A stretch of DNA of 64,000 bases from an uncultured Clostridia bacterium (GCA_947305865.1 CAMZEU010000002.1:1019-65018), one strand, 5' to 3'; numbered from the stretch's first letter, positions 21,013 through 50,700 are shown. Numbers and translations are program-made. The notes: generated by a model from the letters alone, not told the origin.

Positions 21013-21033
21013 TAATTTAAATTGGAGGAAAAT

Positions 21034-22554: not shown

Positions 22555-22600
22555 AAATTGCATAATTATAAATATTTGTGCATAAAAAGAGGTAGTGTTT

Positions 22601-23635: not shown

Positions 23636-23704
23636 ATGAAAAAACTTTATTTACTTTTAATCATCGTACTATTGATTACATGTTGCTGTACATTGTTTGC
23701 ATGT
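23636..23704 (+). other. Sec/SPII-type signal peptide with lipobox-like L-F-A-C (Cys23)
   Basis: MKK + LYLLLIIVLLITCCCTLFA + C, then NKKTNVEPQ. Positively charged n-region, hydrophobic h-region, Cys at +1 (codon 23702-23704). The -2 Phe is non-canonical, so this needs LipoP or SignalP. Confidence 0.6.
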
Positions 23705-26700
23705 AACAAGAAGACGAATGTTGAACCACAAGTTATTGTCGTGGACCCTATAACCCAGGATACCGCAGTCAATACAGTCTCAAGTGCTTATGCATGGGAA
23801 AAAGTCAAAAATGCAGCACTTAACACGAACACATCCACAGCTGGATTCTTAAACTTCAATACCATATTAGGTTTTGATTTCAAGAAGAATGGGAACGGAA
23901 ATAAATTCGTCCTCCAAGTTGCTGGATCCATCAATCAGGAGGACACGCCTAACTCAAGGATTTATATCGGGCTGGATAAAATCACTGTCGATAATGTCCA
24001 AAGCCGAGTTGCAGCGTTGTACTATGTAGATGGATGGTGCTATGCTGACTTCACGGGAGTTAAGAAAGGCGCAGAAATAGTTAAGACAGATAAGATTGAT
24101 TTAGCTTATTTCGCAGACAGAATTCACAACATGTTCGCAGGAACGAGTGTTGCGGATCTTTTCTATAATACACTCCTTGGATTAGACCTTGGTTCATTCA
24201 TAGATTTGATGTCAGGTCAAACATTAGATGGATTGCTAACAAGCATGTTGCTTCCAGAGACCATTGATATTATCGACCTTGGAAATGGTGAAGAACAAAT
24301 TAAGTTCCCATTCCAATTGGAAGACTTAATGGATATGGTTCTTGGTTTATTATCTGGTGTCTTGACAGATGATATTAAGGACTTGGTATTCCAAGTATTA
24401 GGATTAGACTTATCTAGAATCGATGCAATAGTTGGTAGCGAAGTTAAGGTAGTCTTAGATACAAAGATTAAGAACGGTGTTCTTAAGTCCTTAGAATTAC
24501 AACTTGATGCTCCTTTGGATTCTATAAAGACCGATACAGCCGGTACTTATGGATATTTCACAGAAGACATTTCACTCTCCGTCGGTGCTTTACAAATAAG
24601 CAAGGGTGTCGATCCTAACATCTACTTCAGTGATGAAGTTGGTGCAGAGGAAGATCCAGCATCTTATGTCCTCCTACCAGATGCTTTAAAAGAAGTCGCA
24701 AAAGAATATTCAGTATTAGACTTTGATATAACTCTTAATGCTGCAATTAATACATCAGAAAAGAAGATTACAATCCAAGACATAGATAGTGCTCTTGGTA
24801 AGCTTCTTTCAAATCTCTTAAATGAAACAATCCCAGCAAATTCTCCAATTTGGGGAACAAATATCAATTTGGCAACAACAAACTATGCTTTAACAATTGA
24901 TATTAAGGGAACTCTTAACTTAACAGACAATTCAAAGACCGAATTAGAAATCAAGCTTAGAGATGCTCTCTCAAGAGGCCCAGAAGAAAGAATGGCAATC
25001 TACTATGTAGGTGCGACAAAGACTCTTTATGTAGATATCTCTAACATTATTGGTGAACTTGGCCGTTATAAGATAACAGACTTAGATATCGCAGAAATAG
25101 TTAACGATGCTTTAAGTGGCATTAATATTAAGTCATTAATAGAAAATCTATTAAGTGGTATTGGTTCAAGTGAAGCTTTATCAGAAGCAGAAATTAGAAC
25201 ATACGAAGAATTATTAACAAAACTCGAAGACGGAACAATTCCTCTTAAGATTAGCCATGCTACAACAGCAAGTGGAACTGTAACCTCCGTTCTCGATTTA
25301 ATTATCGATATCGTTAATAGCATCAAGATTGAAAAAGAAGATGCTCCATATGACAATCTTTTGAACATCCGTTCATTGTTGATTTCTATTTCTAATGATG
25401 CAATTGACTATATTAGTGAATTAATCTTCCCAGCAACAAAGAAAGATGATGATGGCAATGAAATTGCAAACCCATTATATGGTTCTAAGTTGCCAATTGC
25501 TGGATTTGACATTAGTTACTATAACTACGGTGTTGCAAAAGAAAAATTAATTAACATTGACTTAAGATTAGGCGACGCACAAGGTATCTTTGATGGTATG
25601 TCAATTGGTATTGGCATTAATGCCAAGTTTGGAACAACCACTTGTGCAGCAAAGAGTACTATAAGTAGAATTGGAGACAGCAATTTTGTATCACTTGGTT
25701 CAATAGGTAAGTTGTCTGAAATCTCACAAGTACTTGAAAATATTAATCTCAAAAATATTTATCTCAAACTTGAAACACAAGTTGGATTCTATATTGCTCC
25801 AGGAACTTTGACAGATATTCAAGTAAACTCACTTGAAGATTATCTCATTAAGATTTTATTCGATATAGCAGATAAGGTTAATGCATCATTGTTATTAACA
25901 ATTGAAGCAAATCTTGATATTAGCGACGGATTGAATAGCATCTTGAATTCAGTTGCAAAGATTGAATTATATGATACATCCAAGACTATTCCAGAGACAG
26001 GTGAATACAAGAAGATTCTTGGTTTATACTTAGAAGATAAGGTTATCTACTTAGATGCTGAATCTATTGGTTTAAATAAGATTTGTGTTGATATCTCATC
26101 GTTTGTAGGTGATTTATTCAAGAAAGATGAAGAAGCATCTTCAGCTTCAGATGCACTTACAGCAGCAGATGATGGCGGATTTGATTTTATTGGTCTTATC
26201 GCAGCAATCCTTGGCGATGTAACAGTAAGCAGAGATTATATTGAATTAGGCTTGGCAACAAACTTAATTAGCAAGGTATTTGAAGCATTAGGCGTAGATA
26301 TTAGCAATATTCTCACTGTTTCATTATTTGATGCAGATGGAAGTGGTGGATTAAGAATCACATTCAAAGATGGTCTTGATTTATCACAATTAGAGATTAA
26401 ATTGTTCGCAACACTTAATAACCAACTCGAACTAAATTTAACAATTGGTGGTTTCGATATGGCTATTAACAGTGATACATTACACGTAGACAACAAAGAT
26501 GAATTCATTGACATCTTCATGGCTCCATATGTATGGCTTGACGTTGAAGGTGGTATGTCTATTAAGATTAGCGAAGCTACTTTAGACCTTTCACAAAACG
26601 AAATGATTACAAACGCAATGGCTGAAGCAGGATATGATGTTGCTGATTTATCATCATCTGCAATTCAAATTCTTGAAGCTATTGACGTTGAGTATGATAT

Positions 26701-29700
26701 GAAGATACAAGCAAGTATCGATTTATGGCCATTGATTTCTTATTTAAATGGCGATAAGGATATATATACAGATAAGAACAATTCACAATTATTACTTGAA
26801 ATTGAAAAGATTTCACAAAGCTTGGATCGTAAGTTATTAATTGGTCTCTACTATATTGGTGGTGTATTGTATCTCGATGCAACCAACTTTGGTATTGATA
26901 GAGTAGCAATTAATATTGACTTGTTAGAATTAGTTATTAACCTTATCCTTAAGGATAAATATGTTGAAATTAAGGGCGATGATTTGAAACCTGTAGCAGA
27001 AGGCGGATATGCAGGACCAAGATATGTTGAGTCCAAAGATGCAGATGGAAATAGTGTTTATACAAGAGATGATGAAAACGGAACATTCAAGTATATCTTA
27101 GATACTATTAGAATCAACCCATCATCCGAGGCATCCTCTGCAGGTGATCCAGATCCACAATTAACACCAGTAGAGAAGCAAAAATTAGCTATTGTTATTC
27201 AAGCTGAAATTTCTTCTACTGCATTTATGGTTAAGTTGGTAGATGGTTTAACTCAAATCTTAAATGAAAAATTAGGTCTCGACTTACCAGGTATTGCATT
27301 ATGGTTAAAACTTGCTATTGCACCAGATTATGTTGAAGATGCAAATGGAATTTATAGATTTGTTGAAGACAAGAATGGTGAATACTTTGTAAATAATAAG
27401 TATGGCAACTTTGTTGTTGCAGAACCAAGCTTTACAGGTACAAAATACAAGAAGATGCCAAACTTCTTATCAAAACTTGGCGTTTCAGCACACTTCGGTA
27501 TTCTCGATGAAAATGGTGATGATGATAATGGTATTGATGTATCAATTAGTAAGTTAGAATTACAAATTGGAGAATTGAAACAAGTTGCTGCAGATAATGT
27601 AACTAATAATGCAGATAAATATGAAACAATTACTCTACTTGACGAAAATAATAACATAGCTATTGAACAAGCATTTATTGAGTTAACAGGTGCTATTAAT
27701 CTTTCTGCTCAAGGAACAAACGGTGGCTATGAAGATTGGACTGTTGGTGATTGGATTTCAGCAGTAGTTTCTCAAGATTCAAAGACAATTCAATCTATTT
27801 TACATGGATTATTAGTAAGAATTGGTGTTAACCACAACATTAGTACAACAATTGGATTTAGAATTGCACTTCTTGCGAGATTCAATTGGGAAAATGGATT
27901 TGATATCAACTATGTATTATCTCACTCTGATTTGAGAATTGAGTTATACAAAGGTGAATATGTTGCTGGTGGTAACAATACCAACTTGATTACACTCTCA
28001 CTTCTTTACCAAGGAGACGTTGCAGGTGTTCCTTCAAGCACATTATTCTTAGAATCAGATTTACAAATCATCCAAAATACAAAGATTTATTTGGATGGAA
28101 TTAATCTTGTAACATTACTCGGTTTAGATAAATCTAAAGAAGAAGAAAATGCCGAACCAGAACAAACAGCAACACCAGCTCCTTCAACAGATCCAGCCCC
28201 ATCTACAGATGAACAAACATCATCCGAAGAAGAAAGTGGTGGTCTCTTAAGTGGACTTACAGGTAAAGGCGGTATATTAAGTGATATCCCAGCATTACTC
28301 AACAGCACAATTTATTCTGTAACAGCAAGTATGGATGAAATCAAGATTTCATTCGCAAAGAATCTTGCTGCATTCATTGTTTCTCTCATTGTTGGAGATG
28401 GCAATGACCAATACATCGAATTAGATGATGGTGAATTAAATACTGTTGGATTAGAAGATCGTTATGCTGTTGTTTATGTAGCAGACGATTATGGTAACTT
28501 CTATCAACATACAAATGGAAATTATTACAAGATTAAAGATGCAACATTTGATGGACAAAGATATGAACCTAGATTTGTATCTCTTGCAAATAATCTCTAC
28601 AAGAAAGTTGATGATACATACACATTACTCACAGCTGAAGAATTATACACATATTCTGGAGATAGATATTTTGAATATGCAGGAAATAAAGTAAAGTTTG
28701 TCGGAAATTATTATAAGTTCACTGTAAGTGATGAAGGCACAGACTATACAATTACAAATATTCAAGGTTTTGCAACTCCATTAACAGCAGCTGAAGAATC
28801 TGATGTATTTAAAGGAACAAGATATAGAGCAGATTATATTGCTTTAGCAAATAACTTCTATACAAAATCAGGAAACAATTACGCTTTAATAGAGAATATT
28901 TATACATTCTCTGGTGAAGCATATTACAAGATTGGTGATGAATATACATTATTCGATGGAACATACTACAAACTCCAAAGTGATGGTTCATATGCAGTAA
29001 TTTCAGATGAAGATAGAAAGACATTCGATGGCGCTCTCTATGCTGTAAATTATGTAAAGGATAACAATGGAACATACAAGTATGTTTATGCAATGTATGA
29101 TTACATTGACCAAGATGATGGCTCAAGATATAAGTGGTTAAAGGACTTCTTCCCAATTAATCCAGAAGACAGCTTCCTCTCATTAGAATGGGCTAATACA
29201 TATCGTCTTGAATTCAGCTTAGGTATTACTCCAGTCGCTCTTGGATTAGAACTTTCCAAGATTAGACTCTCTCTAAGTGATACAGCATCCGTATTGGAAT
29301 CACCAATTAATAAAGCAGAATATAACAATGTTCTCGACTTTGAAGATTTAACAATTAGTGCTGCAATAGAAATTAACTTCTCACTCGCAGAAGCCAGTGA
29401 AGATAACCCATATGCAATTGGCGATTATATTTCAGTATTCCTTGCAGAATTGGCATTAAAGTTCGGTATCACAGTTGAAAGCGAAATCGGTGTAAACTGG
29501 GAATTAAGACTTGATGCAAACCTTAACACAAAGGATTCTACAAAAGCTCAAATCTTATTAGAATTAAGAGATATTGAAAAGAGCAAGATGATACTTGGTA
29601 TCTACCTTGTAAACAGCAACTTATATGTTGATATGGGATTCCTTTCTGATTATGACTTTGTAATTGAAGGAACCAACTTCGCAGTATTATTAACAAATGT

Positions 29701-32700
29701 TTTGAACCAAGTCCTTGGTGGAATGGGTATCTCATTTGGTGGAACAGAATCTGAGGCTACAACAGCAGCAGAGACAAATTCTGTTGATGCAGGAATTATT
29801 CTCAATCTTGCAGAAAGAGACATTCAATTAAAGATTACCGAAGCTGTAATATTCGCAATCATTAGTGCAGTCATTGGAACAGGTGATGCAAGCAATGCTG
29901 TAGATTTATTACAACAACTTGGTTTGAAGTTATCTATTGACTTAGACTTAGATTTAAGAAATGTTGCTCTTGCTCTCAAGATTGATTCATCAATCTTAGA
30001 TCCAAAGAACTCTATTTCAGAAGTAGATATCAATGGAAACACAGTATACACAACAGAAGTTTATAGAGACTTCTTCAACATGGAATTAAATATTGTTGCA
30101 CCAAAGATTTCATTTGCTCCAACAGATGCAGATATCGCAGCAATTAAAGAATCCATTGAAAAGGCAATTTATACTGGAATTCTTCTTGTTGAATTAACAG
30201 ATGAAGAAAAAGATCATGGCTATGGTAAATGGGTAAAAGAACCTGTATTATTAAGTCCTAAAACTGACTATGTTGTTGGTAATCCAATTGTAGGTACATA
30301 CTATACAATGTTTGATGGATATTTCTATCCTGCAAGTGGTTACTTCAAGGCTGAAGAACATTACTATAGAATAGATGAAACAACCAATAAGACAGAGGCT
30401 ATTTATAAACTCTTAACAGCACGTGGATTTGGTCAAACAGTTGATGAAGAATTTGATTTTGATAGATTCGATGTATTCAATAATAATCCAATCTTAAGCT
30501 TTGACCTCGACTTATTCGTTGACTTATTCGTTTCAACAACATTCAAATATGAAGGAGAAAAGGCTAAGAACTATAGCCCATCACAAAGATATACAAAGAG
30601 ATTATCTGATGGAAGATTTGTTCAAGATGATGATGGCTTATATGTACAACAAACATTAAGCATGGATGAATTACTTGATGCACTTGTTAGCTTGCCATTC
30701 GTACAAAACTTAATTGTTTCATTGGAAAACAATGAGTCTGTTGGCGAAATTCTTGGACCTGTAGTTTCATCTCTTGCAAAGCAATTATCATTCCAAGCAT
30801 TGTATCAAGCACCATTGGATCTCAATATTGTTCTTTCAATCAAAGGTAACATAGATTTAGGTGTCTTGGGTATCTCATCACTTCTCACAACAGGTGATTT
30901 GGGAGAATTGAACTTTGATATTCAAACATTATTAAGTGCTATTAACCTTGGTATCGAAATTTCATTCAATAAGGGTGATAGTAAGAGCAAGATAGGAATT
31001 TACCTTGTAAATGGTAATCTCGTTATTGATTTAAGCGATTTATCTGGCCCAACAATCAAGGCAAGCTTATTTGATATTCTCTCAATGTTTGATGTAGATG
31101 CCTCAACAATTCTTAACAATAGCGAGGCAACAACATCTGCAGACGAAGAAGAATCAACAATTGAAAAAGTAGCAAGAATACTTAATGGCATTGTAGATGC
31201 AGTTATCTTTGAGACTGGAACACAAACAATCCCATTCTTAAATGAATCCTACAGCACATTAGACGATGTCAAGATTAGATTTAATAAGAATATTGTTGCA
31301 AACTTACTTGAATTGATATTCAAGATACCATTTAAAGCTGAAGGATATGAATTAGACGAATCAAATAGTGGATTATACTTATTCTTCCATGATTCAAGAT
31401 TTGCTAATGATCCAACATTAGTTAATTCAGAAGGTATCAATCCATTCAAGGGTTGGGCACTAGAGGTTGAAGCTTCATTATCTAATGGCATGTATTTCGA
31501 CATGGCAACAGGTATTGGTGCAACAATTAGAATAGGAAAAGAAGCAAAAGAATTATTATCTCAAGAAAATCTTAATGCTGCTGTTGAAATTACAGACTAT
31601 CTTGAAAACTTGTTCGGTACATTTGGCTTAATTGATAAAGTCGGAACATATGTAACAGTTTCTACATACGAGAGTGAATATGTAGATGCACAAGATAGAA
31701 TTGATCCTACAAGCCGTTATAACAAGGTTGTAGATGGATATACACAAGTAGGTGGATTAGTTGGTGAATATGTATTACTCGTTGGCGAAGAAGACTACAT
31801 AAGCGCAAAACGTTTCTTACCTCTCAACCAATATGCAATTTACTTTGAAAATGGCGTTGTAGCAGATGTAGATAATACACTTCGTTATACAAGAACAGAA
31901 GTAAAAGAAGGCGAACAAACAGTTGGTTATACATATGAACAAAATTCAGCTGGCGAATATGTATTATATGCAACACAAAAGCATGTATTAAAGAGCTTAT
32001 ATCTAAAAGCTAACGACATTGAAACATTGCCACAAACAATGGCAACATTCAATCCAACATATAAATATGTCCAAAATAATGAAGGTGATTTCGTCTTCAT
32101 TAAGGAAGGAGAATACATTTCCGCAAAGGACTATGCTAAGTATCTTGGACAAGAAAGAGTTGCTGCATTGGTTCGTTATGACAGAGAACCTGTTTATGCA
32201 CAAAGCAATGTTGGTGAATTTGTTAAGTTAGTAGATGAATATATGCCTGTTGCTGCATACATTGCATTTACAAACGTTGTAGATGTACCAAAAGAAATTA
32301 GATATAACCGTGAAGATGGTAAGTATGTACAAAAGGATGATGGTTCATTAGTCCACATTGATGTACTCTATGTAAATATCACAAGATATTGTCTCCTCAA
32401 CGGTGTTACAGAAGATTCCATTGACAGAAGAACAAGATACAACTTTGATGGATATAGATATTCACGTGATGATGAAAATGGTGAATATGTAAGAGCAGAA
32501 AGCCTTGAATATAATGGAATAGATGAAAGAGGTATTGTTGTTGATTATAACCTCTATTCAACAGTAGTTGCTGATACAGCACGTTATAGATATATCAAGA
32601 CAGTTGTTACACAAAACAACCAAGGTGAATATGTCAAGTTGCCAAAAGGAACAATCATTTCACTAGAAGATTACGCATATTATACAGGTACAGCTATTGC

Positions 32701-35700
32701 TGATATCCCACTCTCAATCAGAATCAATGCTGATGAAGAGCCAGATCAAAACGGAACAAGAGTAAAGACTACATCTGAAATGATAGTAACACTTGCTCAA
32801 TATTGCGTAAGAAATTCAATCTCCGATGCAAACATTGACTCAATGGTACCTATTTCAATTCGTGCAGCTGTAAAAGAAGTATACGATGTATGGGCAGATG
32901 AAGATGGTGATGGATATAAAGATTGGACAGATTCTGATAATGATGGAAAAGATGATAAGACTGGAATAGCAGTTACAACAAAGTATACTCTTGCAGATTA
33001 TCCATATACATTCATCCCAGCAGAATATTCTTCACAAAATATTTATCTCTCATTGAATGCAAGATTATTCTTCGAAACAGTTGATAAGAAGAGTGTAAAT
33101 ATTGGTGGATTATTAACCAATTGGTTAGGTGATGCAATTATTGAATTAACATCAGGTAACATCTTCAAAGATGGTATTGGTGCAAGAATTGCAATTAACC
33201 TTGATATTGCATCCTTAGATTTAAGCAATGGTTTGAACAGCATCTTGAATTCAGACTTCAGTAATATTGAAATTGGACTTGAGTTACTTGAAACAGATGA
33301 AAATGGACAAATTATTGTTGACGAATATGGTAACACAAAGCAAAAAGGTGGATTATATCTCTACCATGGTACACTCTACTTAGATGGTATGGGAATCTTC
33401 CCAGATGCAAATCAATATTCATATATTCCTAACTTCATGGAATTAATCCAAAATGTTATCAATTATGATTTCTCATTCCAAGAATTAATTGATGGAATTT
33501 CCAATGAAATTGGATTAGGAACAACATCTGCAGAATCTTCTACAAGCAGTGAAGAAGATAGAAATGCAATCCTTGAATTATTGACAACAGATACTTCAGT
33601 TCAACTTGTATTAACCAAGTCATTAATTGCAGTAATTATTGCAGCTCTCCTTCCAGAAGTTGGTTCTGTTGCAGAAGTATTCGATCAATTCTCATTAACA
33701 TTAGGAATTGACTTCGGTTCTTCTAACTACAAGATGTTCTCAGATTGGAGATATAGAGATGTAAATGGTGGCGTTTATGAATCAGATGCTAAATACTACA
33801 ATGTTGAATATACAACATTAGTTGAAGGTACTGATTATAATGTAGGTGATATCATTAGTGTAGTTGCCTATACAAAGCCAGGTAGCGAATATATCCCAGC
33901 ATATGGATGCTTCGAAACATCAACAACATACTATACATTAAGAAAGACTGCTCTCACAGTTGGATTAGATTATCAACTTGAGACTTCAATCAATAGTGGA
34001 GTATATGAATTAGTAAGCACAGAAACGGCTCTTGATTATGTATTAGATGACATAGCTGGTTCAAAACAAAGATATGCAATTTCAGATGTACAAAAGACAA
34101 CATATACTGACGTTGCAGCATTTACTGCAAAAGCAGGTTATGTATTAGGTGAAGATGCCAACGGATATAAGATCTTCTCATATTTGACACAAGCACAAAT
34201 TCACAACATTATCACAAATAAGGGTAGTGTAGATGTTTATAGACTTACATTTGTTGAAAATAATGCTGGTCTTTATATGTATGTAGAAGATGATTTTGGA
34301 CAATACTATGCATGTATTCTTCCATTATCTGAACGTTATACATACCATTCTTCAATTGATTATGAATTAACAAATGGCTTCGATGAAGGAAATGAATCTC
34401 GTATCCCAACAGATATTCAATCTGAATATGTGGATGTAGTTAAAGTTGCATCACAACAAGGTCAATTTGCTAGAGCATATGTTGAAAATAGATGGTTATA
34501 TGTTGATACAGAAAGATATCCATTAATGTATTCATTTAATGGTGAGAAGTTCTACAAGAATGCATCTGATTTCTATGATTTATATAACACAACACCTGGA
34601 TTCAGTTATACAGAAGGATTAAGCATGATTGTTAATACAACAACCAAGGAATCCTACACATATGTTTACTACTACAACAACTACTATGTAGTTTCTGGCT
34701 TATACAACAAGTTAACTGGATACACAACAGATTCAAAGGGTGTTTACTATAGTAAATTACACGTATTCACAAATATTTATGAATATGGTGTAACACTTGC
34801 ATTTGATATCAATGGTGTTCATGCTGGTTTAACAATTAATGGTCTTAAGATTGACTTCGGTGCAGGCCACTCAATCTTGCCACAACGTATTATTAAACAA
34901 CAAACAGAAGGAACATATACACTTGGCATTAGGTACAAGGAAATATATGGTCAAGCTGCATATGACGCAGTACAAAAGAAAGATAAGTACAAATTAACAA
35001 AATATGGATATGTACAAGATGACTATGGCAACTATATCCGTCATGATTATGAATATTGCCCACTTGTAATATTCTACGATAGCACAATCGAATTATCATT
35101 CTCAGTTGAATTAGAATTATCAATTGACGAAGGTAAGATTGATATTGGACCATTATTTGAAGATCTCTTAGGAGACTTAGATGGTGTTTCAATTGAAATC
35201 CCAGCAACAACAAAGGGTTATTCTTCAGCTCACTTCCGTCTTGATGCAAGCTTAAAGATTGATATGTACGATTTGTCCAACTCAGAATTGGTAATGGAAT
35301 TATACTCAATTGGTATCACAGGTTATGAGACATTATGGCTTGGTGTTTACTACATTGCAGACGTAATTTATATCAATGCTGCAGTTCTTGGTTTACCAAA
35401 GATGTCAATCACAAGCTTTGGTATTATGACATATCTTAATACAATTCTTAAAGACATTATTGGTGAGTTCTATAATGAGAATGTATTACCAGATGCAGAA
35501 GATTCATCTTCTGAAGCTGGAATTGCTTCTGATGCTATAACAGCTAATACTGCAAACGGTGAAATAGACGTATCAGTATTGTTTGATAGAAGAACATTAA
35601 GTGTTCAAGTCGCAAACACATTCATTCGTTGGGCACTTGGTTTAGTTGTAATTGATAAGGATTCTGGATTAACAATCGCAGACTTAGTATCACAACACTT

Positions 35701-38700
35701 AATTGCTGGTGTTGGACTTGATATGAGACTCGAAGATGGATTCAACCTTGATCTCAACGTTGCTCTTGGATTCAAGGGTGATAGATTCACAATTATCAGA
35801 GAAGACCAAGAAGAATTAGCTAAGAACAAGTTCTATGCATTCGACAGAAATGAACTTGGTGATTATGTATTAGAAGACGGTGTATTAAGAGTTATTAAGC
35901 CATCCGAAAAGGTTGACGCACTTTCTCGTTATACACTCAATGAAAACACAACATTAGTAGAAGGAAAGAAGAAGGTCTACTTCGATACATATGCTGAAGC
36001 AGAAGCAGCAGGAAATTATGTTGCATATCTCTCAGCAGCTAAGTCCGAAGCTAACATGGAAGAATATGATATGAACCTTGATTTATATGTTGGAATCAAG
36101 AACCTCAATATCGCATTCAACTCCGTACATGAATTCAAACTAACAGCAGAAGACATTGGCGAATACAGTGAAGTAGGTGAATTAGAACATATTTCATTAC
36201 AAGAAGTTATCGATATTACAACATTGTTCAAGGCTGATTCAAATATTGACTTAGCAGAAATATTGACATACTTCTTCCCAGAAGTTGATGCAGATTCAAT
36301 TATTGCTGAAATTACAGCAGAATCTGACTCACATGGAGACATCCATAGAATCATTGAAGCTGAAATCAATATGGATATTAAGATTGCTGCTCTTATGAAC
36401 TACTTCAGACAAGTATTCACAATGGGTACAGCAAACTTCAATTCAGACTTCTCAATCTCTGACTTAATCTCAATCATTAAGGCAGTATTGAACAAAGATG
36501 ATAACCTCAATGTATATCAAATTCTTGACGATGTACTTTCATATATCAATACATCTGTTGTTATCCGTACAAGATGTGGATATGATGAATTAACAGGTCA
36601 ATACACAGATACACACAACTGGATTTCAATCTTCTTTGTTGGTGGTGAATTTGAATTGTTACAAGAAAACAACTTTGGTGTATATGGATACAGAGATGAC
36701 AAGACTACATTCGTAGATAAAGAACATCGTTATAGCCATTACTTCAAGGCGGCAGATAACAATGGACCATATTACTACAATGCAGATACAAAGAAATATG
36801 ATCTCATCACAGAAAACTTCGAAGAAGATGTAGACACATATTATTATGATTCAACATATTGTTATCTCAATGAAAATGGTGAATATTATCGTCACAATGG
36901 TGGCTTGTATGTTGATTTGAGTTACTTCAATATACCATCTCTCTACTTACAAAGCACATCAATCGAACACTTATTCGAATCATTATCATTAAATGATACA
37001 ATTAACGGATTACTTGGTGGTTCAGAAGCATCTACACCAGAAGAAAAAGTTGTTGCATCAACAGAGAGTGATGCTACAGCTGCTGTTTCATTCCCACTCT
37101 TGAATGAAGAAGTTTCTGGTTATATCCGTGCATTCTTATATGGATTAAAGATAACATCACAATTAACATCAGTTATTGTTCAACCAGACTACATCAACCA
37201 AATCTTGAAGTTAGTCATGGGAGAAGATGGTGCAATTAAGTTCAGTTACCTTGATAACCAAGAATATAAGTATGATAAAGACGGAAACGTACAACATGCT
37301 TCGTCATTAACAATTTATGCAGACCGTTCAGCATATAACTTCATTACATCTTCTTATGCATTTGCAAGTGAGATTAATGATTCTAATGCAAGATTCCTTG
37401 CAACATATAATCAAGAAGAAGGTCAATACATAATTAACCCAATTGATTATATTATTACAATGGCTGAATTTACTGCAGAATTTGGCACAACATTTACCAC
37501 AGATCCAGTAACAGCTGAAATTTCCAACCCAGAGGTTGATAGAAGATTTGAAAATGCTCCTATTAGATGTGACTCTATTGGAAATCCAGATGTAGATGGT
37601 GACCATGTCAAGTTTACACGTTATGAATATCAAGAGAAGAAGAATTTAAGCGAAGCCGAATTAGACTACTATGTAGCAGCTAATGGATTATTCTTCGATG
37701 TTGATATGACAGATACTTATGTATATGTTGGCAATGGATTCACATACTTCGGACAAGCAGAACCTGATGCAAGTACAACAGGAATATTCAATGACTATAC
37801 TTCAAACTTTGCATACTTCTACGGAATCGTAGGAAATGAATATGTCAAGTTGACTCTTAAGGACAATAGATATCTCTATATTGGATCTTCAGATACCCCA
37901 TACACAGGAGTTGATGTATATGTTTCATCTGGTAAGATGTCTAAGTTGAGCAAAGTTACAAAGACAGAACGTAGATATACATATACTGATGTTGAGACTT
38001 ACTATACACCAGTTAAGTTTACAACAGGTGACTGGGTACTCCAAAGCGATGGTTCTTATAAACTTTATGCAGGAATGTCAATCGTAGAACAAAGTGAAGT
38101 TGATGCTAATGATAGATATAATATGATGCCAATGTATCTCACTGGAAGTGTTGTTGAAGTATCCACAGATACATGGCAAAAATATAGATACAGAACACTT
38201 GTTAATAGTGAGTATGATTCAATTGTTAACCATGGTCGAATCTATGTTGACGGTGTAAAGAGATATATGGATATGATCATATTCACTGAGAATATGGCAT
38301 ATGTAACATATCAGGCCAAAACGACTGTAGATGGTCCTGTACGTACTATGTATATTCCAGAGATGATGAACAATCTCTTGATTAGACCAACAACATATAC
38401 TCCAGTTTCTGTAACTGCTGCTGAAATTATAGCAAAAGCAAAGATTGGAACAGATTATTGCTTCTATGGATATGACTTAAAGAAGTATGAATTTGTAGCC
38501 TTAGCATGGGATACAACAAATAATTATTGGTATCTCTCAACAGATACTGAACATACAAGATATACTGGTGCATTATATATGCTCAGTATCCATGATGAAT
38601 ACAACCCAATCATAACCATTCCAGCATCTAATGTTAAGAATGATTCATTGATGTCATTACAACTTTATCTCTGGGAACACACAATTACAATTGATATCAA

Positions 38701-41700
38701 TGTTCCAAAGATTGATGCTGTAGACTTCACATATCTCACAAAGACAGATTATGAAGCAATTAATGGACCTGATTCAGCACCTAAGGCAGCTCTCTTCTCA
38801 AGAGAACCACAATATATTTACACGCCAATTGACCCAGTAAGCTTCACATATGATAATACAGAAGAATACTTCTTCATTAACCAAGGTGAATATTACGAGT
38901 TAAGCGATGCATCCATTTATACATATGGTGGTGGTACTTATACATTAGTTGGTACAAACGACTTCACACATGGTGATGCATGGGATATCAAGTACTACAT
39001 TGGAATTCCAGAAGAAGATCCAACAATCTATAAGCTAGTTGAAAAGAAGAAAGTTTACACACGTGCTATTAGCAAGTATGTATATACAAAGGATGAAAGT
39101 GGTGAATATGTAAGAGTTAAGATTGATTCATCTGTAACATATAGCAGATTTGCATATTCCAAGATTTCAGAAGATGAATTCGTAAATGGATATATTGCAG
39201 CAGCTGCAAACTATGTATATGATGCAAACACATACTCATACGTAGTATCCACAGATCCAAGTGCAACATTAACATATAAAGATATCTTATTTGTATATGA
39301 TGAAACAACATATCATTATGTATCCATAAGAGATTATGAAGCAGAACATAGTGGTTATGATTTCACATCAACAACAATTTACAAAGCAAGAGGAATCGAA
39401 TATGTAAGTACAGATGATGTATATTACATCTCCTTGTCATTAGATGGCTCAATGTACATGAATTCAGCTAAGGTTTATAAGAACCTTGCAGACTTTGCTA
39501 CAAGCAAGAAGTCAAGTATGTACAACTCTAAGACAATTTGGAAGAAAGATTCTGTTGCTATTGAAAATGCAAATGGTATCTATGTAAAGGTTATAGATAA
39601 TTATTATGGTGCTGGTGATGGTTATTATATGCCTGTAAATTCATATAAGGCATTAACAGATAAACCAGTAACTGATGGTAAGTTCTATAACTTAAGAGCA
39701 CAAGCAGGCAATTATGTTCGTGCAACAGATGGTAACTGGTATTGTGCAGACAATAACCCAGCAGCAAATGGACACAACATCATTGATATGCTTTATTCAG
39801 AAGACTTAATCGTAGATACAGATGATATCTACGTATTCCAACAAGGTGGATATGCAAAACTTGGTTCAGTCTTAGATAAGAAAGATTATGTAAAGACACA
39901 CGAAAGCACACAATACTACTTAATGTATTCATCTGGTGCAACAAGCACATTGAATAAGGTATTAAGTGGAATAGTTGGTGATTTGGGTACAGAATTAGAC
40001 TTTACATCTGAATTATCTGGAGAAATCGAATTCAAGATTACACTCTCCTATGGTGGAACATTACTTCTCGGTACAAACGAAGAAACTGGAGAATTCCAAT
40101 TTGGTTTAGATGTATTCAACCTCGAACTTGCAATTGATACATGGAGAAGAACAAACCACGTTGATGATAATACATTAACACACGTATTTGGACTTTACTA
40201 TGACAGAGATGATTCAGTAGGTAAGAGCGGATTATACTTAGACTTAAGCTACTTCTTGAACGAAGAAGCAAAGGTTTACATTGATCTCTCAGATTGCCCA
40301 TTAGAAGACTTCATCAACTCTAAACTCTATTATGAGAAGGTTGAAACATACTACGAAGCAACAGCAGCAAGTGAAGATACAGATGCTACAACAGCTTCCA
40401 GCACAGTACTTTCTGGCGGAAATATGACAGCAGCATACTTCAATATCTACACATCTGCATTTGGTCTCTCAGTAACATCCGGATTCTTGAAGGTATTATT
40501 GAACAACCTTATCACAGGATTTGAACAATATGCAGGATATATTCCAAATATTGAAATCTTCATTAAGGGTGAACTTGATCCATACAGATTAGCTGTAGGC
40601 TTAACACTTGATGATGACGAAGGCAATGCATTAGTTGAAGCTGGTGTAAGACTCAATGGTATTACAGGTGACTATAATACAGGTACTGTATTAGACTTTG
40701 GTAGCTTGGCAAAATATGATAGCATTGATATGACATCAAGAGATTATATCTTCTACTATGGCAACTTCGTACGTGTAGATAAACTTGGAACAGTATCTTC
40801 ATATGATTCATCAGTTCAATACTATGGTAAAGATGGAGAAAGAAAAGGCTATGTCACAATTGCATCAGACAACTATGGTGTAGCTGGTTCTTGGTATTAC
40901 ACAGAAGATGGTATCGAGGCAGTAAGTGGCGCAAGATATAATAATAAGGTATATACAAGATCTAATAAGATTAGAGTAAATGAAGATTATAAACAAGCAT
41001 TGAAGTTAATTGAAACAAATACTTATGCAAGTTATAACTTCAAGGAAAGCAAAGATGAAAATGATGATGTCATTGACTTCTACGGATTAGTAAATGGCAA
41101 CTTCATTAAAGTTGATTACGATGTATATAACCTTGTTACAGATAACACTGGATTATGGTATTACACCTTAGATAACGAGTCTGCATGTAAGCTTGCTGAA
41201 TCCAGATTCAGAGGAGAAGTTTACTTTAGAACAACTGCATATGGTGAAGAGAACTACGAAACAATCAGCGTAAAATACAATAAGACAATCCAAGGATGGC
41301 AATATGTAAAATACGATGCATATGGCAACGAAATTACAGATGCATATGGCAACGTAATGTATTATTCATATCCAGGAGATGTCACATTCGTATATTCTGG
41401 AGCACTTTATAGAGTAACACCAGTATACGGAGTAGTTGATGGAGTAGAATCTCAATTAACTTATGATGCAGTAAATGGATGGCTCTATGCTGGTAATCCA
41501 TATGATGGTGAAATTTACAAGAAAGATGAAGCAGGTCTTGCAACTATGGATTATGTCAAGATTATGGGACTCAACCTCGAAGATATGTTCGCAGAGGGAT
41601 TCAGTCTTGATAACCTTGATTTAGGTGCATTACTTGGCGATCTCAAGTCATTTGAGCTTGGTCTCAACATTGATTTCCAATTAACATTTGCTGATATCAT

Positions 41701-44700
41701 TAGCTTCACAGAGCAAATGAGCACATTCATTGGAAAAGACTTCAACTTCATCGCAACATCATTAACAAAGCAAGGATATAGCTTCGATACAGTATTTGAT
41801 ATTTCAATCGAGTTAAAGGCATATCTTGATCTTGCAAGATTAGTAAGTGGATTAACTTCTACATCAGGCGACAAAGATATTCTTTCAATGCTCGTTGGAA
41901 CAACAATTTATGCAAAGATTGGATTGAAGTCCACATATCTTGCAACATATAACCCAGAACAATTAACAGACTGGGATGCAACAACAATTATCTTAATGGC
42001 TAACTTGACAGAAGATAATGATAGCAACGTATTGTTGAACCTCTATCTCGACCTCTCAGACTTGTCCAGACAATTCCCAGCATTAGGTGACGTATTTGAC
42101 AAAGTCAAGTATGAAGGATTGAATCTCACAAAGATTATAGGTTCTACATCCGCTGAATCAGCAATTGCACGTGATTCTGTTGCAACATCTGCAGCATTAG
42201 AACTCAATACAGCTGATGCAGGTGATGTTGATATGGGATTACTTGGAACATTCGATGCAGGCGCAACAATCTACTCATTACTTGATGCTCTTGTTGGCAG
42301 AGTAATGATTACAAACGATATGCTTTCAATTGGATTCAAGGAAACATTACTTGGTTCAATCGTTGAAATGATTTCTTCAAGATTAACAGATGAAGAAAAA
42401 TCCAAGTTACCAACATTAAGAGTAACAAACGGCAAAGATACTTCTGGTATCACATTAGACTTCAACGATGATGGACATATCGCATTGTATGCTGTTATAG
42501 GTATTGAATCTGGTATTCTTTCATACAGCAATGATTCTGCATATACACCATTAAGTGACGTCAAGTATGCATTTGATGATAAGACAGGTAAGTATTATGT
42601 TGCTCCAGCTGCAACTGGAAAGAATACAAACGTAATGCTCAGTGATGGTGAGTACTCATTAGTTGAATATGTAGACAAACTTGACAGATGGGCACTTCAA
42701 TCATACGTTGCACTTACTGCAGAAGAAAAGGCAATTAGAGCAGCTGTTTATACAACAGATGATGGCATCAACTATACACAAAGAGAATATAATGGAAACA
42801 ACGGCTTAACATATTACAAGTATGTTGGTGGAAATTATGTTGAACTCAGATATGCAGATAAGTTATTACTTGAAAAGAAGTTATATACATTATCCGCTTC
42901 AGTTTACACTGAATACACTGGTGTAGTTGATCCAGCTAATACATACTATGTAGAAACAGGCAACTTCACATACACAATGGTTCCACGTTATATAGCAATA
43001 ACAAATGCAGAAAGAGCAATTCTTGAAGCAACATTGTATACAAAGTCTGGAAACAACTATGTAGTAGAGACAGGCGCATTCGATGCAACAAAGACATACT
43101 ATATTGATTCAGGTATCAACAAAGTTGAATTAACAGCGGAACAAAGATTAATTCTCTTAAAGGCAACATTCACAACTACAAACGGTACAACATTTGTTGA
43201 AACAGCATTTGATAAGACAGATGAAACAACAACATATTACTTCTTAGATAGTTATGAAATGATAAGAGAAATTGATGGCAATGGTTCATATCTCTATCTT
43301 GGTTACTACAACATTGAATTAAAGGCTTCTAACATTTATGCAAGAATTAATAAAGATTTCAGTGTTGATGACAAAATAGACAAAGATGGAATCCACTATG
43401 AAGTATATAAGGATATCACAAAACTCACATTGAACCTCAATATTGAATTTGATATCTCATTATATGGCAATAGTGATCCAGGAATCACAGGAAACGACAA
43501 CGTTGTTGACTTAAGTCAAATTCTCAACCTCGTAGCAAACCTCATTAACAATGAGGACATTGTTGAGGCATTTGAAGGTGCAGAGTTATACACAAGATTC
43601 AAGGGTGATATTGGTAGCGACAGCAACCCAACATATAACTTATCACTCAACGTCTTTATAGACATTGCAGACTTCAAGAACTTACAAGCAACAATTGAAC
43701 TCAAGCAATACAAGAAACTTGGTCCTGGTGAAGCATTCACAGGCGAGTTCATGCCAAACCCAGTATTAAGTGCATACTTATTCAATGACAACATCTATGT
43801 TGATGCACACGGTTTACTTGGTGATGCAGGGTTGATTTCAATTGATAACCTTGGTCTTGCTAAGTTACTTGATACAATAGAGATTGCTGGAACAAAACTT
43901 GGAACATTCCTTGGACATGATATGTCAGCTTATGAAGATAAGAGCAGTGGAGAAGCTACAACAGCTGCTCATGTAATGGATAATGTTGAAGATGTATCAA
44001 CAGTATTCGGCACAGCTGCTTACTTACTCATGACAACATTCCCAAGACAATTCTTCATCCAACTCAACTCTGCAGCAGTTAATGCAATCATTAACAGAAT
44101 TAGAGAAGCACAAGGCAAAGCAAATTCCGATTACTTACCAGACATCGGTGCATTACTTATATCTTTTGATTCTGATAATACTGATGAAATACTATATACT
44201 AATATATATGCTAAAGTAACAGATAGCTTCTATCTTGCACTTGAAGCAAAGAAGGTAACATGGAGCAGAGAGAAACAACCATGTGAATTCAATATTGATT
44301 CTATATTACAAGTTTCATCATACACATCATCTAACACAATCTTCACATCTGGTAGCGACAAGCAATATTACAGATATGAAAAGGCAACATATATTGCATT
44401 AACAGATGAACAAGCAGCACAATTAAGTGCAAATGGAACAATCATCTATAAGAACTATACAGGTGATGCAAATAGACCAGCATTCATTGCTAAGTCAGAT
44501 ATCAACTTTGTAAAAGTTGGTAATAACTATGAATATAGCAGTACTGGTACTCCAATTTACATGACACCTGTTAAGTACGAAAGTGCAGCGAACTACACAT
44601 ACTTCAGATATCAACAAGACAACTATATCGAAATCCCAATGTATAAAGGAGATAGATATAAGCTTGTTGGTTCAACATATGAACTTGATCCAAAGGGTAC

Positions 44701-47700
44701 ATATTACTATGATAAAGAAGAAGAAATATATAAGACATTAGTTGGTGGTACTCTCGAACAAGTTAAAGCAGGTACAGCACATTATCAAAATAACTACACT
44801 GGTACAATTTATGAGAGCAGATTCCAAAGTGTATATGATATTGGAACAGGCGACATCAAGCTTGAAACATTGAGCTTAAGTGTAACAGGTGAGTTGAACC
44901 TTACATCCGACGGAATCGTAAAGGGACAAACAAATTACGATAAGACATTCTCTTACTGGATTGCTAAATTCCTTGCGGATTTACTTGGAGAATCAGATCT
45001 TGCTGGTGGTATTCTCAAGGGTATTACAGCAGATAAGATTTCACTCATCTTCCCACAAAAGACAATTAACGTTGTTATCAACATTATGGCTGATGTCAAT
45101 ATTCCAGCAATTGTTAAGTATGGTATCTCTGGTATTCTTTATAGTGATATCTACTTACAACTCATTGAAGGTGCTCCAATTAACAAGACCTTCATGGAAA
45201 TATACTATCTTGGTTCTTCAAGATTAACACAAACTGGTAACATCTATACATTGTCACCAAATGGAACAATCTTCTCAGATTGTATCTACCTCAACCTTGA
45301 AGGTTTAGGATTAGGCTCTATCGCATTCCACGGCTTAACAGGAATACTTGGAGCAAAACAACCAGATTATGTAACAGCATCTACAACTGCAGAAACAGAG
45401 GCATCTGAGGCCGTCACAAGTGCAGCTTCAAGCTCATTGTATCTTGAACTTGGTATTGAACATGGTGGATTCTCACTCAAGCTTGAAAAGAGTGTTATCG
45501 ACTTCGCATTAGGATTACTTGATCTTGATATAGATTTAAGTGAGATGCCATTACAATACATCGAATTAGAAAGCAGATATTCATTAGATGTTGGTGTATC
45601 TGATTTATCAATAACAGCAGTTCTTGACTCTGTTGGAACAATGCTTGGTATCAAGCTTGGTAACTTTGATATCAGCTTCTCAGAAAGAAAACTCGACCTT
45701 GAAGCAAAGATTGCAGCATGTCAATATGGCTCAGCTGGTATCACATATTCAAAGGTAGCAGGTATTGGTGCATTACTACAAAATGTAATTGACTCACTCA
45801 ATGTTGGATTAACAATTCACATTGATAGAAAAGTTGATACTATTAACTTAACAACACTTTCATGGTTCACATGGAAAGGTAGAAGAGACAATAGATACAC
45901 ATCAGTTACATTGAATGGTATCAAGACGAAGAGTTCAATAGACGCAGAACCAGCATCATACAAGTTGAAGTTCAGTATTAGTGCATTACATCCATCTGCA
46001 GCTTCAAGCCCAATGACAGCAAACCTTTACTTCTACAATAATGACTTAGTATTAGGTGGATTCGATTTACAAACAACAATTGCTGATATCTTAGGAAACT
46101 TCTTAAAGAAGATTGACTTAGGTAGTGGTAAACCAATGTTTGAATTCGCTAACGTAATGGGTGCAGATACTGCTGAATATACATATCCAAGCAGCACAAC
46201 AACAGATCCTGCAAAGGATACAACAACTTCAGCTGCAGACCAATACAAGAATGGTAACTATAAGTATGCAGCAAACCTTGAAGGATTAATTGCTGGATTA
46301 GAATTAGACTTCTGTACATCCAACAACTATCATCCATACTATTCAGGAATGGGAACAATCGATGGAAGCGCTGCAACAGATATGAAGTATGTTTCAGTAC
46401 ATATTGAATTTGGTAAGCAAGCATTTAACGAATTGTTAATATTCTTATATACAACAGTTCTTAGCTTATTACAAGGTAAGGAAGGCGAAGAGAGCAAGGG
46501 TATTGATACAAGCTCTAACTGGGCGGATAGCGATGATGCATACTTTGTAAAAATGTCTGCATTCAGTTGGACTTCAGATGGTGAAGGTAGTGAATCACAA
46601 CTTGATAGTAACGTAGATAGCACTTACGGTGTATCTGGTGGCTTGGCAAAGATGTTCGAACATATTGATTCTCTTACAACAACAGCTGCAAGAGTAAACT
46701 TCTTAGAGCCAATCATTAAGTCAATACCAGTTGCATTGTTACGTACAATTCTTTATAACGTTGCAGGTGTAAGTGCTACATTGATTTCTCTTGCAGGTAC
46801 AGTAGCAGGTGGCACACTTGGTAACTTCTGTAGATTAGTTGGTGCTATCTTACCATTACCATTTGCAAGCATGAGCAGTTCAGTTGCAAATCCATCTGCA
46901 CATATCTACATTGATTTGGATCCAGATCCATCTGTATATAACCGTTCAGGATACACAATGCATCCAGGTGTACAAGCAATTGAGTTATACATCAATGCAC
47001 AAAAGGTAGTACTTGGAAGCCCAGCAAACAGCTTAAACGGCACACAAATCTACACATGGGGTGGCTACAGCTCATACAGAGGAGCAACTGACACATCAAC
47101 TCAAACAAAATACACAATTCCAAGTCTTGGCAATGGTGTAACAAATATGAGCAATACACAACAAATGTTGGTATTGAGAATAGACCCATACTCAACAGAA
47201 AGTAATTCTATCACAAGTCCATTACTTGGATTTGACGAAGCAGATGCTGCATCTCTCATCGGTACAGCACCATCTGAGATTTACATTACAGATCCAGCTA
47301 ATAGAAGTGGTTATGTAAAGGTTGGTAGTTCAAGTCAAGACTTTGTATTAAATGCAACAGCATTCCAAGACACATCTATCTTCCCAGCAAAGGCTAACGT
47401 AACATTCACCAATGGTGAACCAAGTTCAGATACTGGTGGCACAGTAGTTGTTTGGGATGCAGGTGGTGTAGACTTCACACCATATGAAGGTGAAATTGGC
47501 GAGAAGTTCGCAGGTTATGTATATGGATATGCACTCAACATCTGTGTTGCAGCAGTTCCTGTATATGTAACAAATGACTATGGATTCAAGTCAATTAAGG
47601 CATATAAATATGATGGAAGCACATGGAAGACAGAAGCTATCACACGTGATATGCAAAGCAATGTAGACGACCTCCCAGATATGGTCAAGATTTCATTCCA

Positions 47701-50700
47701 AACAGGTGGTACTTATACATTCGCAACAATTGCAAAAGATATGAATGGTGCTGACTTACTTGCTAGATACGATACAGAAAATGATGGCAAGACTCATGTA
47801 ACTGGTCCAGCATATAAGACACGTGTAAGATTTGATAGTGATGGAAACGTAATCTTAACAACAGGACTTAGCACAAATACAACAACATCCACATGGTATT
47901 ATCAACATAAGGATGAAGATGGTGTATTGTACTATACAAAGGGTTCAGCAACAGGAGCAAGAATTGAAGTTGATTCAATTACAGATCCATTATATGCATT
48001 GTTCGATAGTTCAAAGAACACAGCATTTAATAAGTTGAAACTCAGCAGAAATTACCCAGCAGGATCCATCTCATGGAACTATGGAGACTACAAGTATAAC
48101 TTCCATAATGCAAGTGTACAAGTTGGCTTCTCATATTCATGGGGCTTCACATCACAATCTCAAAAGATTACTATCCCAATGGTAAATTACGAGATTACAA
48201 AGGCTGGAGTAACTAAGTACTTACAAGATTCAGCTGGACAAAACTATGTAAAGACATTCACTAACTTGAATTCATTAACACTTGCTAATGTAATTACAGA
48301 TACAAATAGCAATGGAAAGATTGATAAGGCTGAATTTGTAAGCTACATCAAGTCATTCAAGTATGTAAGTGGTAAGTATACAAGCAACAAGTCATTCTCA
48401 GGAATCTCTGCAGAATGGGATACATCATTACTTGAAGATGCTATTGACGATATCACAGAAGACGGCGTAATTAAGTTCTACGAAGGTCTCAATGTAACAA
48501 TTCCATTGTACATTGGTGGTAAAGAATACAAGCTCAAGCAATTCAAGACAGCAACTGGTGATTCATACGGATTCAATGGTAATGCAGATGAAGATACAGT
48601 TTGCAAGACTCCATATGCACAAGCTGGATATGTATCACAAGTAATTTATGTAACTATTACTGTATCTTCAAGCAAAGTAGATTCTATTTCTTCAGAATTT
48701 ACATTCAACCCATATAGCTCAGATGATATCGATGCAACAGCCGGTATCAACACAGGCAGTGGATTAGATATTACAACATCATTTGGTGATCAAGTAATGG
48801 TTGTAATGAAGGGTGCTAAGAAAGCAACATCCATCTCCTATGCAAGTGAGACAGCCAAGATTTCTGGACCATACTATGTAGCAAGAAGACTTGCAACACT
48901 CAATGTAAAGGAAACTGACTTAATCGTTCCTGGCACAAATGGTACAAAGACAATGGCTGAATTCATCGAAAGATATGTAAGCTATGATGGACTTGAAGAA
49001 AATGACTACAGAGTATATGTTAAGTTAATAATCGGTAACAGCAGTACTGGTGGTGAACAAGTATTCTACAAGCAAGTAACATTTGCTAAGTTAACACCAA
49101 CAGTTGTAACTAGAGATGTAACAGATACATTCAACCCATATTGGTATAAGGGTGAAGATGCTAACCATGTAGGTTACAACACATTGAATGTATCATTCAA
49201 GGAAATCTCTGGAACAGTTGCTATGACTCCAGATTGGTCACAAGTCAAGTACTATTCAGACGCTGGACGTACAAAGGAAATTAGCAACATTGCTAAGGGC
49301 GGAATTGTTTATGCAACAGTACCTGCAAAAGTAACAATTGGAACAGGAACTGAAGCAAAGGCACTTGCTCTCAAGTACGTAAAAGACGATGATGGTAACG
49401 AATCATATGTTCCACAAACAATAGTTGTAAAACTCAAAGTTCAAACTAAGAGTGTAAAGGCTATCACATTCTATAAAGATGATGTCTATGGAACAAATAC
49501 AATTATCAACAACAGTTCTACATTGTTGAATGTTAGCAACTACAGTTCTAGTGTTTATGCTCCACATGTTTCACAAGATGGAACAGTATACAGCATTGAT
49601 ACAAAGGCATACTCATTAAACCCAGAGTATTACTTCCGTGCTCCAGATCAAACAGCAGATGACTATAAGACAATTGTAGAAAGAGCCTGGAACTGTATCA
49701 GAGGTATTACAGGATATAATACATCACTCATTAGAAGACAAGTTCAAGAGAATTGTACAATCGTTTGTGTTGAAGAATACAATGGTACAAAGACATTGGC
49801 TATCATCAGTAGTTGGGATTACACAACATATACAAACAATGTAAGTGAAAAGAGTGTAAGCGCTAGAATCTCATTCACAATTGGTAACCAAGTATTCTAT
49901 ACAACACTCTTAACACCATCTTACAAGATTGACAATGTTGAGTTGTTGAACGAAGACGAGACTCCATTCACAGGCTTTGCAGCAGATGAAGATGAATTAG
50001 TCTATGATGCACGTACAGCATGGACAGCTCCATCTAAAGTAAAGGCTACAATTGATTGGAAGTATGCCTTCAATAATGTAACAACAATGAATGCACAAGA
50101 TGTATTAAGTGCTTACTTCCCATATCTCACAAATGCAAGCCAAATCAAGTACTATAGAGAATTGAATGGCGCATATGTTGCAACAGAAGATTGGGTAAAT
50201 GAAGTATATTACAAAGTTGCAAGTGCATACTATGTAACATATGACAAGTATGTTGAAGTAAAGGGCAATGTAGCAATTGACGATGCTAAGAAGTACAAGA
50301 TTGGAACAATGACTGTAGCAACAGTTGCAGATGCAGAATCTACCTCATTGTATCTCAATACAGCAGGTCAATTCACTCCATTGAATGAAGCTGAACCAGC
50401 AACATATATTGAGAACAACCCAGGTGCAGTATTTGTATTCAGTACAGAAGGCGATACTTACTACAACATCGTAGAAGAAAGCACAACTGGATTATATGTA
50501 AAGATTGCTGCAGCAGGAGAATACATTGACTTCACAGATTACTGTGCATTCGAAGAAATAATTGCAAAGACATATACTGGCGAAAACGTTTATGTAAAGA
50601 ATGGTGGTGTTTACACAGCAGCAAATACAGCTCTATTTGTAAAAGCTTATGATTATGACACAATCTCTGATGTAAGCGTAAGATTTGTTGGTATTAATGG

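Follow-up and report, generated by a model that had tools for sequence, protein, structure and literature searches.

The closest described counterparts of the repeats considered here belong to three kinds of protein. The cell-wall-binding or choline-binding repeats (CW_binding_1, PF01473) are hairpins of about 20 amino acids (aa) which, together with their loops, form a superhelical solenoid. The YD repeats (PF05593) of Rhs proteins, Tc toxins, and teneurins also have a short hairpin period of about 20 aa, and build a closed beta shell. Finally, the staphylococcal Ebh/Embp proteins and the SasG/Aap-type rods are giant repetitive surface adhesins anchored by sortase. The subject of this work is a protein segment encoded in a stretch of 64,000 nucleotides (the window, which here means the whole stretch) from an uncultured Clostridia bacterium (GCA_947305865.1, CAMZEU010000002.1:1019-65018), whose source is a metagenome-assembled genome (MAG) of 1.32 Mb and 76% completeness. 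This segment consists of eight tandem copies, diverged from one another, of a mini-domain of 41-57 aa, and it lies inside a lipoprotein of 10,433 aa. With the CW_binding_1 repeats it shares tandem aromatic hairpins, a tight Gly turn, a surface or secreted host protein, a Gram-positive lineage, and a variable copy number; with the YD/RHS repeats, an R-Y ... D-x-x-G-x-aromatic hairpin rhythm and a very large host protein; and with the giant Gram-positive adhesins, a surface protein of several thousand residues made of repeated modules, the lineage-specific expansion of a small repeat, and an Ig-like array (Big_4 on some homologues).

The eight units (u1 to u8) extend from aa 2690 to 3068 (window 31703-32839), in the frame of the giant open reading frame (ORF), with a mean length of 47 aa and the consensus R-Y ... 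Y-V-Q-[DN]-x-G-[ED]-[YF]-V ... Y-[IV] ... D-Y-x-x-Y (Table 1). A preliminary description, made from the DNA alone, had proposed about eight units of ~45 aa in this region, and both figures are borne out, as are the seven peptides that it quoted and its degenerate final copy, all of which are present in the translation of the ORF. Its stated start, 31701, is off-frame, two bases before the codon boundary at 31703.

The reality of the repeats is supported by several comparisons. When each unit was scored with a hidden Markov model (HMM) built without it, and the score was compared with those of 500 composition-matched shuffles, the real unit exceeded all the shuffles for u2-u8 and 499 of them for u1, with u1 and u8 as the low scorers. 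A relaxed RY...G-E-Y-V regular expression finds 20 matches in the host protein, versus 1.0 +/- 1.1 expected from 200 shuffles, and self-BLAST pairs aa 2739-2838 with 2922-3018 (E 5e-6) and aa 2809-2930 with 2940-3068 (E 3e-7). Moreover, in unit-versus-unit comparisons by hhalign, using for each unit a profile made from its orthologues, u3, u4, and u7 match one another with 85-94% probability, and most pairings of u2, u5, or u6 with u3 or u4 reach 49-65%; u1 is weak against all units, and u2-u5, u4-u6, u5-u6, and u5-u7 are among the pairs at 3% or less. In alignment, u5u6 matches the pairs u3u4 and u7u8 column for column. The array of eight repeats is genuine, beyond what chance would give.

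Table 1. Position of the host gene, the repeat units, and the limits of the insert that bears them. Scores are those of the leave-one-unit-out test, with the number of shuffles scoring as high in brackets.
Feature	Amino acids	Window position	Strand	Score in bits (shuffles of 500)	Remarks
Host gene		23636..54937	+		Single uninterrupted ORF (from the ORF list), 10,433 aa; N-terminal lipoprotein signal MKKLYLLLIIVLLITCCCTLFAC, followed by N
Upstream flank of insertion site	2651-2665	31586..31630	+		EITDYLENLFGTFGL; in the alignment of six genera, [IL]-x-D-Y-[ILV]-x-N-[IL]...G
Entire lineage-specific insert	2666-3128	31631..33019	+		~465 aa: lead-in, eight units, acidic tail
u1	2690-2746	31703-31873	+	10.5 (1)	N-terminal and most diverged; mostly absent in G003
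u2	2747-2802	31874-32041	+	16.5 (0)	Additional hairpin between the R-Y strand and the Y-x-Y-E-Q strand, from alignments
u3	2803-2843	32042-32164	+	29.9 (0)	
u4	2844-2885	32165-32290	+	23.8 (0)	
u3 + u4	2803-2885	32042..32290	+		Canonical di-unit, chosen for the structure model
u5	2886-2931	32291-32428	+	21.3 (0)	
u6	2932-2979	32429-32572	+	13.5 (0)	
u7	2980-3023	32573-32704	+	32.2 (0)	
u8	3024-3068	32705-32839	+	6.3 (0)	Degenerate last copy, IRINADEEPDQNGTRVK...LAQYC
Insert tail	3069-3128	32840..33019	+		Bears the acidic motif WADEDGDGYKDWTDSDNDGKDDKTG
Start of conserved downstream module	from 3129	33020..33058	+		...AEYSSQNIYLSLN; block continues as ARLFFE past the range

The positions that define the unit are kept both between copies and between species. 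The orthologue set comprises three species of one genus (G000, G002, and G003), and in an alignment of 20 unit sequences the Gly of the turn is invariant, while the Arg, the Val of the second strand, and the Tyr of the helix are each present in at least 90%. R, Y, the turn G, the second-strand V, and the helix Y are conserved across both orthologues and units. Most simply, the conserved Arg, Tyr/Phe, Val, and Gly would be the small aromatic core and the turn of each unit, with variable polar positions in between.

Structure prediction gives this unit a tentative shape. Since the orthologues could not deepen the alignment (a metagenome scan yielded just near-identical copies of the G002 and G003 sequences), the di-unit u3u4 was folded with AlphaFold from a multiple sequence alignment (MSA) of 11 rows, made of the non-overlapping pairs u1u2, u3u4, u5u6, and u7u8 from the three species. 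The resulting model has a mean predicted local distance difference test (pLDDT) value of 76.0 and a predicted template modelling score of 0.63, with strands at residues 17-20, 24-27, 45-47, 60-63, and 66-69, and helices at 28-34 and 70-77. In each unit of the model, a short strand is followed by a hairpin (FVFI / EYIS in one, FVKL / EYMP in the other) and then by a helix (AKDYAKY and VAAYIAFT), in the same order. According to this model and the consensus, the unit would consist of a short R-Y strand, a beta-hairpin (Y-V-Q, a tight [DN]-x-G turn, and [ED]-[YF]-V-x-hydrophobic), a third short strand x-Y-[IV]-[ST], and a two-turn helix x-x-D-Y-x-x-Y, and we propose this strand-hairpin-strand-helix architecture with moderate confidence. 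In a second model, which covers the whole region (aa 2651-3103, 453 aa, from the three orthologues), only u7 and u8 reach pLDDT values of 64-80, and secondary-structure assignment with DSSP shows the order strand-strand-strand-helix recurring unit by unit despite the low confidence. The combination that the preliminary description had named as speaking against its repeat, an absence of periodicity together with low pLDDT throughout, was not observed, and its suggestion of a new family of aromatic beta-hairpin repeats is supported, with the amendment that a third strand and a short helix are predicted in each unit.

No known fold or sequence family accounts for this unit in the searches carried out. 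Foldseek with the u3u4 model gave a best E value of 3.5 and template modelling scores of no more than 0.28 against the PDB, and nothing better than E 1.6 against BFVD; the 453-aa model found no meaningful match, and searches of the PDB sequences with unit profiles found no chain at E <= 10. The whole host protein was likewise scanned against Pfam and NCBIfam, and no family matched, the sole item being a sub-threshold EF-hand.

The segment that the preliminary description had seen in isolation is one variable insert within this surface protein of an uncultured rumen Christensenellales bacterium; the lipoprotein signal of the protein has the form MKK...TLFAC followed by N. Two congeneric species carry intact orthologues of 10,437 and 10,373 aa, with identities of 78% and 50%; the records that bear them are rumen MAGs ('Clostridia bacterium RGIG8124', from water buffalo rumen, and 'Christensenellales bacterium ruminal_MAG_149'), and the gene occupies ~2% of a genome of ~1.3-1.6 Mb. 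The protein is built on a core with the signature G-[LIV]-Y-[LY]...L-Y-[LV]-D ('LYLD'), of which a regular expression finds at least 13 copies. When the profile of one core region was searched against 301 genomes of the order, representing 151 genera, it matched giant ORFs in 35 genomes and 22 genera, mostly of 5,600-11,600 aa where the contig is complete. All eight retrieved relatives in which the start of the ORF was captured (both orthologues and six from other genera) have a lipoprotein signal, and a lipobox-like N-terminus is present in 116 of the 120 public homologues retrieved. A large protein collection contains 144 homologues of 5,900-7,900 aa, all of them unnamed, a few of which carry just Big_4 (PF07532). 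The host is a member of an unannotated family of giant lipoproteins, 6,000-11,600 aa long and present in many Christensenellales genera, as shown by its lipoprotein signal, its length (within 6,000-12,000 aa), and its repeated core module; literature searches turned up no account of either the family or the repeat. As a separate observation on the architecture of the protein, 12 of the 13 LYLD-type cores in aa 1-7540 (window 23636-46250) are followed, 25-50 residues on, by a short low-complexity linker rich in Ser, Thr, Glu, Ala, and Asp, such as GTTSAESSTSSEED, and these linkers punctuate the module boundaries.

The array lies between two conserved modules, approximately those of the sixth and seventh LYLD cores, and its flanks are conserved across genera. 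Upstream, AlphaFold places a helix of low confidence (residues 2-13 of model 1, pLDDT ~30-36). Downstream, the block Q-N-[IV]-x-L-S...L-[YF]-F-x-S...G-G-L-[LI]-x-N, which here starts at about aa 3133, is kept in six genera, and the downstream module matches those of other genera with phmmer E values of 1e-32 to 1e-42. The insert between these flanks is 9 aa long in G014 and ~15 aa in G011, lengthens in the order G017, G224, G008, and G003 from ~190 to 345 aa (an approximate count from the alignment), and reaches ~465 aa in the window. Because the flanks are conserved while the insert ranges from 9 to ~465 aa, the array represents a lineage-specific expansion at a permissive, hypervariable junction. 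Directly 3' of the array, the acidic motif (aa 3086-3110, window 32891-32965) contains two DxDxDG-type loops. It is largely invariant among the three orthologues (columns D438-D451 of their alignment), and the giants of other genera lack it. From its DxDxDG pattern, the motif looks like a calcium-binding loop of the thrombospondin-type-3-like or dockerin-like kind, with no Pfam match.

In relatives from other genera, the junction lacks such units or bears only one to a few. A di-unit profile yields strong matches, four to five in number (E 1e-23 to 1e-31), in no genomes other than the three of this genus; of 105 other genomes of the family, 32 give weak single matches (E 6e-6 to 1e-2), mostly inside giant ORFs. 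An HMM of 22 units detects solitary unit-like elements, such as RYTLVDGSYVQSDTGEYVRYA and RYTQLSDGSFVQDNDGDYVRH, with 6-18 bits in giants from several genera as well as in 99 of the 120 public homologues; ten shuffles of all the giants, used as a control, gave a top score of 5.4 bits. These solitary relatives surfaced only with relaxed scoring and shuffle controls, as iterated HMM searches seeded with the units under strict thresholds did not spread outside the array. In several genera, the hairpin motif by itself, [YF]-V-Q-D-x-x-G-x-[YF]-V, is also 10- to 40-fold more frequent than in shuffles. Given that solitary elements are scattered across genera and the tandem array is found in one, the unit is a family-wide building block and its eight-fold amplification is specific to this genus. 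Regarding wider searches, the 399-aa segment produced two spurious cadherin-like repeat matches and no self-match with phmmer against 1.84 billion representative proteins, which indicates that the genus is absent from that library, and a word-index search through the repeat region for full-length relatives found none. The same library, which lacks the host and its two orthologues, does contain more distant homologues of 7,300-7,900 aa, all unnamed.

Two further observations concern hairpins of this type. Upstream of the array, the host protein has a solitary R-Y hairpin, RYTKRLSDGRFVQDDDGLYV, at aa 2318-2337 (window 30587-30646), and its apparent counterpart is found at about aa 1860 in many homologues of 7,600-7,900 aa from other genera (RYTQLSDGSFVQDNDGDYVRH). 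The amplified unit could have arisen from a hairpin of this type. In addition, the same bacterial family has a second family of proteins, of 1,200-1,400 aa and with an N-terminal membrane helix (L037, G340:C3:170001-180000; L038, G321:C17; L039, G010:C5), in which helical L-x-x-x-T-[IL]-G-E-V-[IL]-D-[IV] repeats alternate with Tyr-rich hairpins (Y-x-x-D-x-x-G-x-Y-V ... R-Y). These proteins match the di-unit profile weakly (E 1e-3 to 5e-5).

Within the genus, the array is old and maintained. The ratio of nonsynonymous to synonymous substitution rates (dN/dS) between G000 and G002 is 0.22 for the array, 0.13 and 0.16 for the two flanking modules, and 0.20 for the whole gene, and the array is free of stops in the orthologues; it is kept under purifying selection and is not decaying. 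Eight units are present in G000 and G002 and six in G003, which is short of about two units and in which the first unit is a fusion of the R-Y of u1 with the hairpin of u3. In the three-way orthologue alignment, the Tyr-rich regions, including the array, have the lowest conservation and the most indels, and in two pairs of near-identical strains from metagenomes the array shows no indel. Neither Tandem Repeats Finder nor a DNA repeat search detects a DNA-level tandem repeat in the array, in which only a 14-nt word encoding V-G-E-Y-V recurs. As no repeat is left in the DNA, the amplification must have occurred long ago in this genus, and the array is neither recent nor slippage-prone. A second indel hot spot exists in the same protein at aa 8801-9000 (window 50036-50635), a Tyr-rich stretch within the C-terminal array, which is ~92% missing in G003 and only 53% identical in G002.

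Altogether, the array is a real, ancient, genus-specific sub-feature of eight units of a new small repeat. Regarding its function, we consider it probable that this array, set at a hypervariable junction of a lipid-anchored surface giant, forms an exposed, aromatic-cored side-arm on the fibre, which is possibly adhesive. In the mechanism that we propose, the array would stand out from the stack of modules as an exposed arm, binding would take place on its variable polar surface, and the ligand would most plausibly be a glycan or the surface of a partner cell in the rumen. Several points weigh against this proposal. The mean pLDDT of the 453-aa model is 36.5, and the architecture of the unit derives from one AlphaFold job, whose five models have pLDDT values of 53-76 and whose MSA combines paralogous copies of the unit. 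That the conserved aromatics are buried, and how the units pack together, is deduced from the conservation pattern, and binding itself is a prediction. Furthermore, the aromatic content of the array (12.4%) is not elevated with respect to that of the whole protein (12.0%), so that an aromatic binding surface is not specifically indicated.

The main alternative, which we regard as possible but rather unlikely, is that the array is a tolerated filler or spacer: a permissive loop would gather Tyr-rich hairpins by duplication, lengthening or stiffening the fibre with no ligand of its own. The wide range of insert lengths at the junction fits this explanation, as does the fact that two genera manage without an array, and nowhere is the protein less conserved or richer in indels than in its Tyr-rich regions. 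Further points in favour are that the conserved positions resemble a structural core more than a binding motif, and that the aromatic content is at the protein average. However, the dN/dS of the array indicates constraint across its whole length, beyond the core positions; the number of units is stable within species, and six to eight of them are kept across orthologues that are only 50% identical; and 1.4 kb of extra coding sequence is a cost to such a small genome.

The array could also be a functional analogue of the choline-binding or cell-wall-binding repeats, tying the middle of the fibre to the cell's own wall polymers with no common ancestry with CW_binding_1, which we judge very unlikely. 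An extra attachment would be plausible in a protein whose sole anchor is an N-terminal lipid for more than 10,000 residues, and hairpins of the CW_binding_1 type use the same hairpin idiom. Nevertheless, hmmscan against Pfam does not list CW_binding_1 at E <= 10 for the segment of the three orthologues or for 20 single units, nor at E <= 0.1 for the whole protein, and no choline-binding solenoid is found among the Foldseek PDB matches of the u3u4 model. The unit is twice as long as a 20-aa hairpin and, according to the model, also has a third strand and a helix. Most genera with the same giant protein lack the array, which thus cannot serve as a general anchoring device.

A closed, eight-bladed domain of the beta-propeller kind, with one unit of ~45 aa per blade, is highly improbable. 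The length of the unit and the count of seven to eight are typical of blades, and FG-GAP_3 matches the G003 sequence weakly (E 0.14, with 13.2 bits versus a curated cut-off of 26.9; one unit, E 0.008). This match is far below the curated threshold, the units are unevenly spaced (41-57 aa) and each has a predicted helix at its end, and no propeller appears in the Foldseek matches; in addition, G003 has six units where G000 and G002 have eight, a change that a closed propeller rarely tolerates, and this candidate was rejected. True YD/RHS-type repeats in an encapsulation shell deserve almost no credence, and within the limits of the profile, domain, and Foldseek tests they are refuted: beyond a superficial R-Y ... 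D-x-x-G-x-Y rhythm, PF05593 was never listed by hmmscan (E <= 10 for the segment and the single units, E <= 0.1 for the whole protein; very weak matches may be masked by the speed filters of HMMER), neither an RHS core nor a toxin domain was found by the Pfam and NCBIfam scans of the 10,433 aa, no Rhs, Tc, or teneurin shell is among the Foldseek matches of the di-unit, a cleavage motif and a toxin tip are missing, and the period is different, with a helix predicted in each unit.

These results settle the comparison that the preliminary description had made. It had correctly reported a period about twice that of the YD repeats and the lack of an RHS core or toxin tip, while a kinship with YD/RHS or cell-wall-binding repeats fails at the level of Pfam profiles, PDB sequences, and folds. 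The resemblance consists of a common hairpin idiom, aromatic-x-x-D/N-x-x-G-x-aromatic, and not of homology. The giant Gram-positive adhesins, for their part, differ from the host protein in their anchoring, which in the latter is by an N-terminal lipid; in addition, its modules and its repeat have no Pfam match, and its family is confined to uncultured Christensenellales. A further counterpart is found in the other giant lipoproteins of this order, with which it shares the lipobox, the array of at least 13 LYLD-type cores with Ser/Thr/Glu-rich linkers, and Tyr-rich inserts between conserved blocks. Unlike them, it bears a regular array of eight copies of one unit, found in one genus; elsewhere the units are solitary or few.

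In the window, the genes located 5' of the host gene (17910-23440) encode a GH127-like protein, a GH20 beta-N-acetylhexosaminidase, and a deacetylase of the PIG-L family, and those located 3' (54990-58374) encode a Mem_trans permease, an SPFH/Band-7 protein with three zinc ribbons, and another zinc-ribbon protein.

The array described here represents a clean case of diversification, in which one genus multiplied a small family-specific unit, which most genera have as a solitary element, to eight copies at one fixed junction and then conserved them. The repeat has no relative in Pfam, NCBIfam, the PDB sequences, or the PDB folds, and the host family, widespread in uncultured gut and rumen Christensenellales, is wholly unannotated. 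Both the di-unit and the whole array are small and expressible, and the structure and glycan-binding profile of either could be the first experimental handle on this 'dark' family. A more speculative idea, which we put forward tentatively and consider unlikely as it stands, is that the mini-domain of ~45 aa has a previously unseen fold whose tandem copies act as a ligand-specificity arm of a giant envelope protein, and that its amplification at a permissive junction may have enabled this rumen genus to bind a new target, either a glycan of plant or microbial origin or a partner cell. If this were true, the Tyr-rich inserts would be the evolvable 'business ends' of a conserved family of megadalton lipoproteins in gut Clostridia with small genomes.

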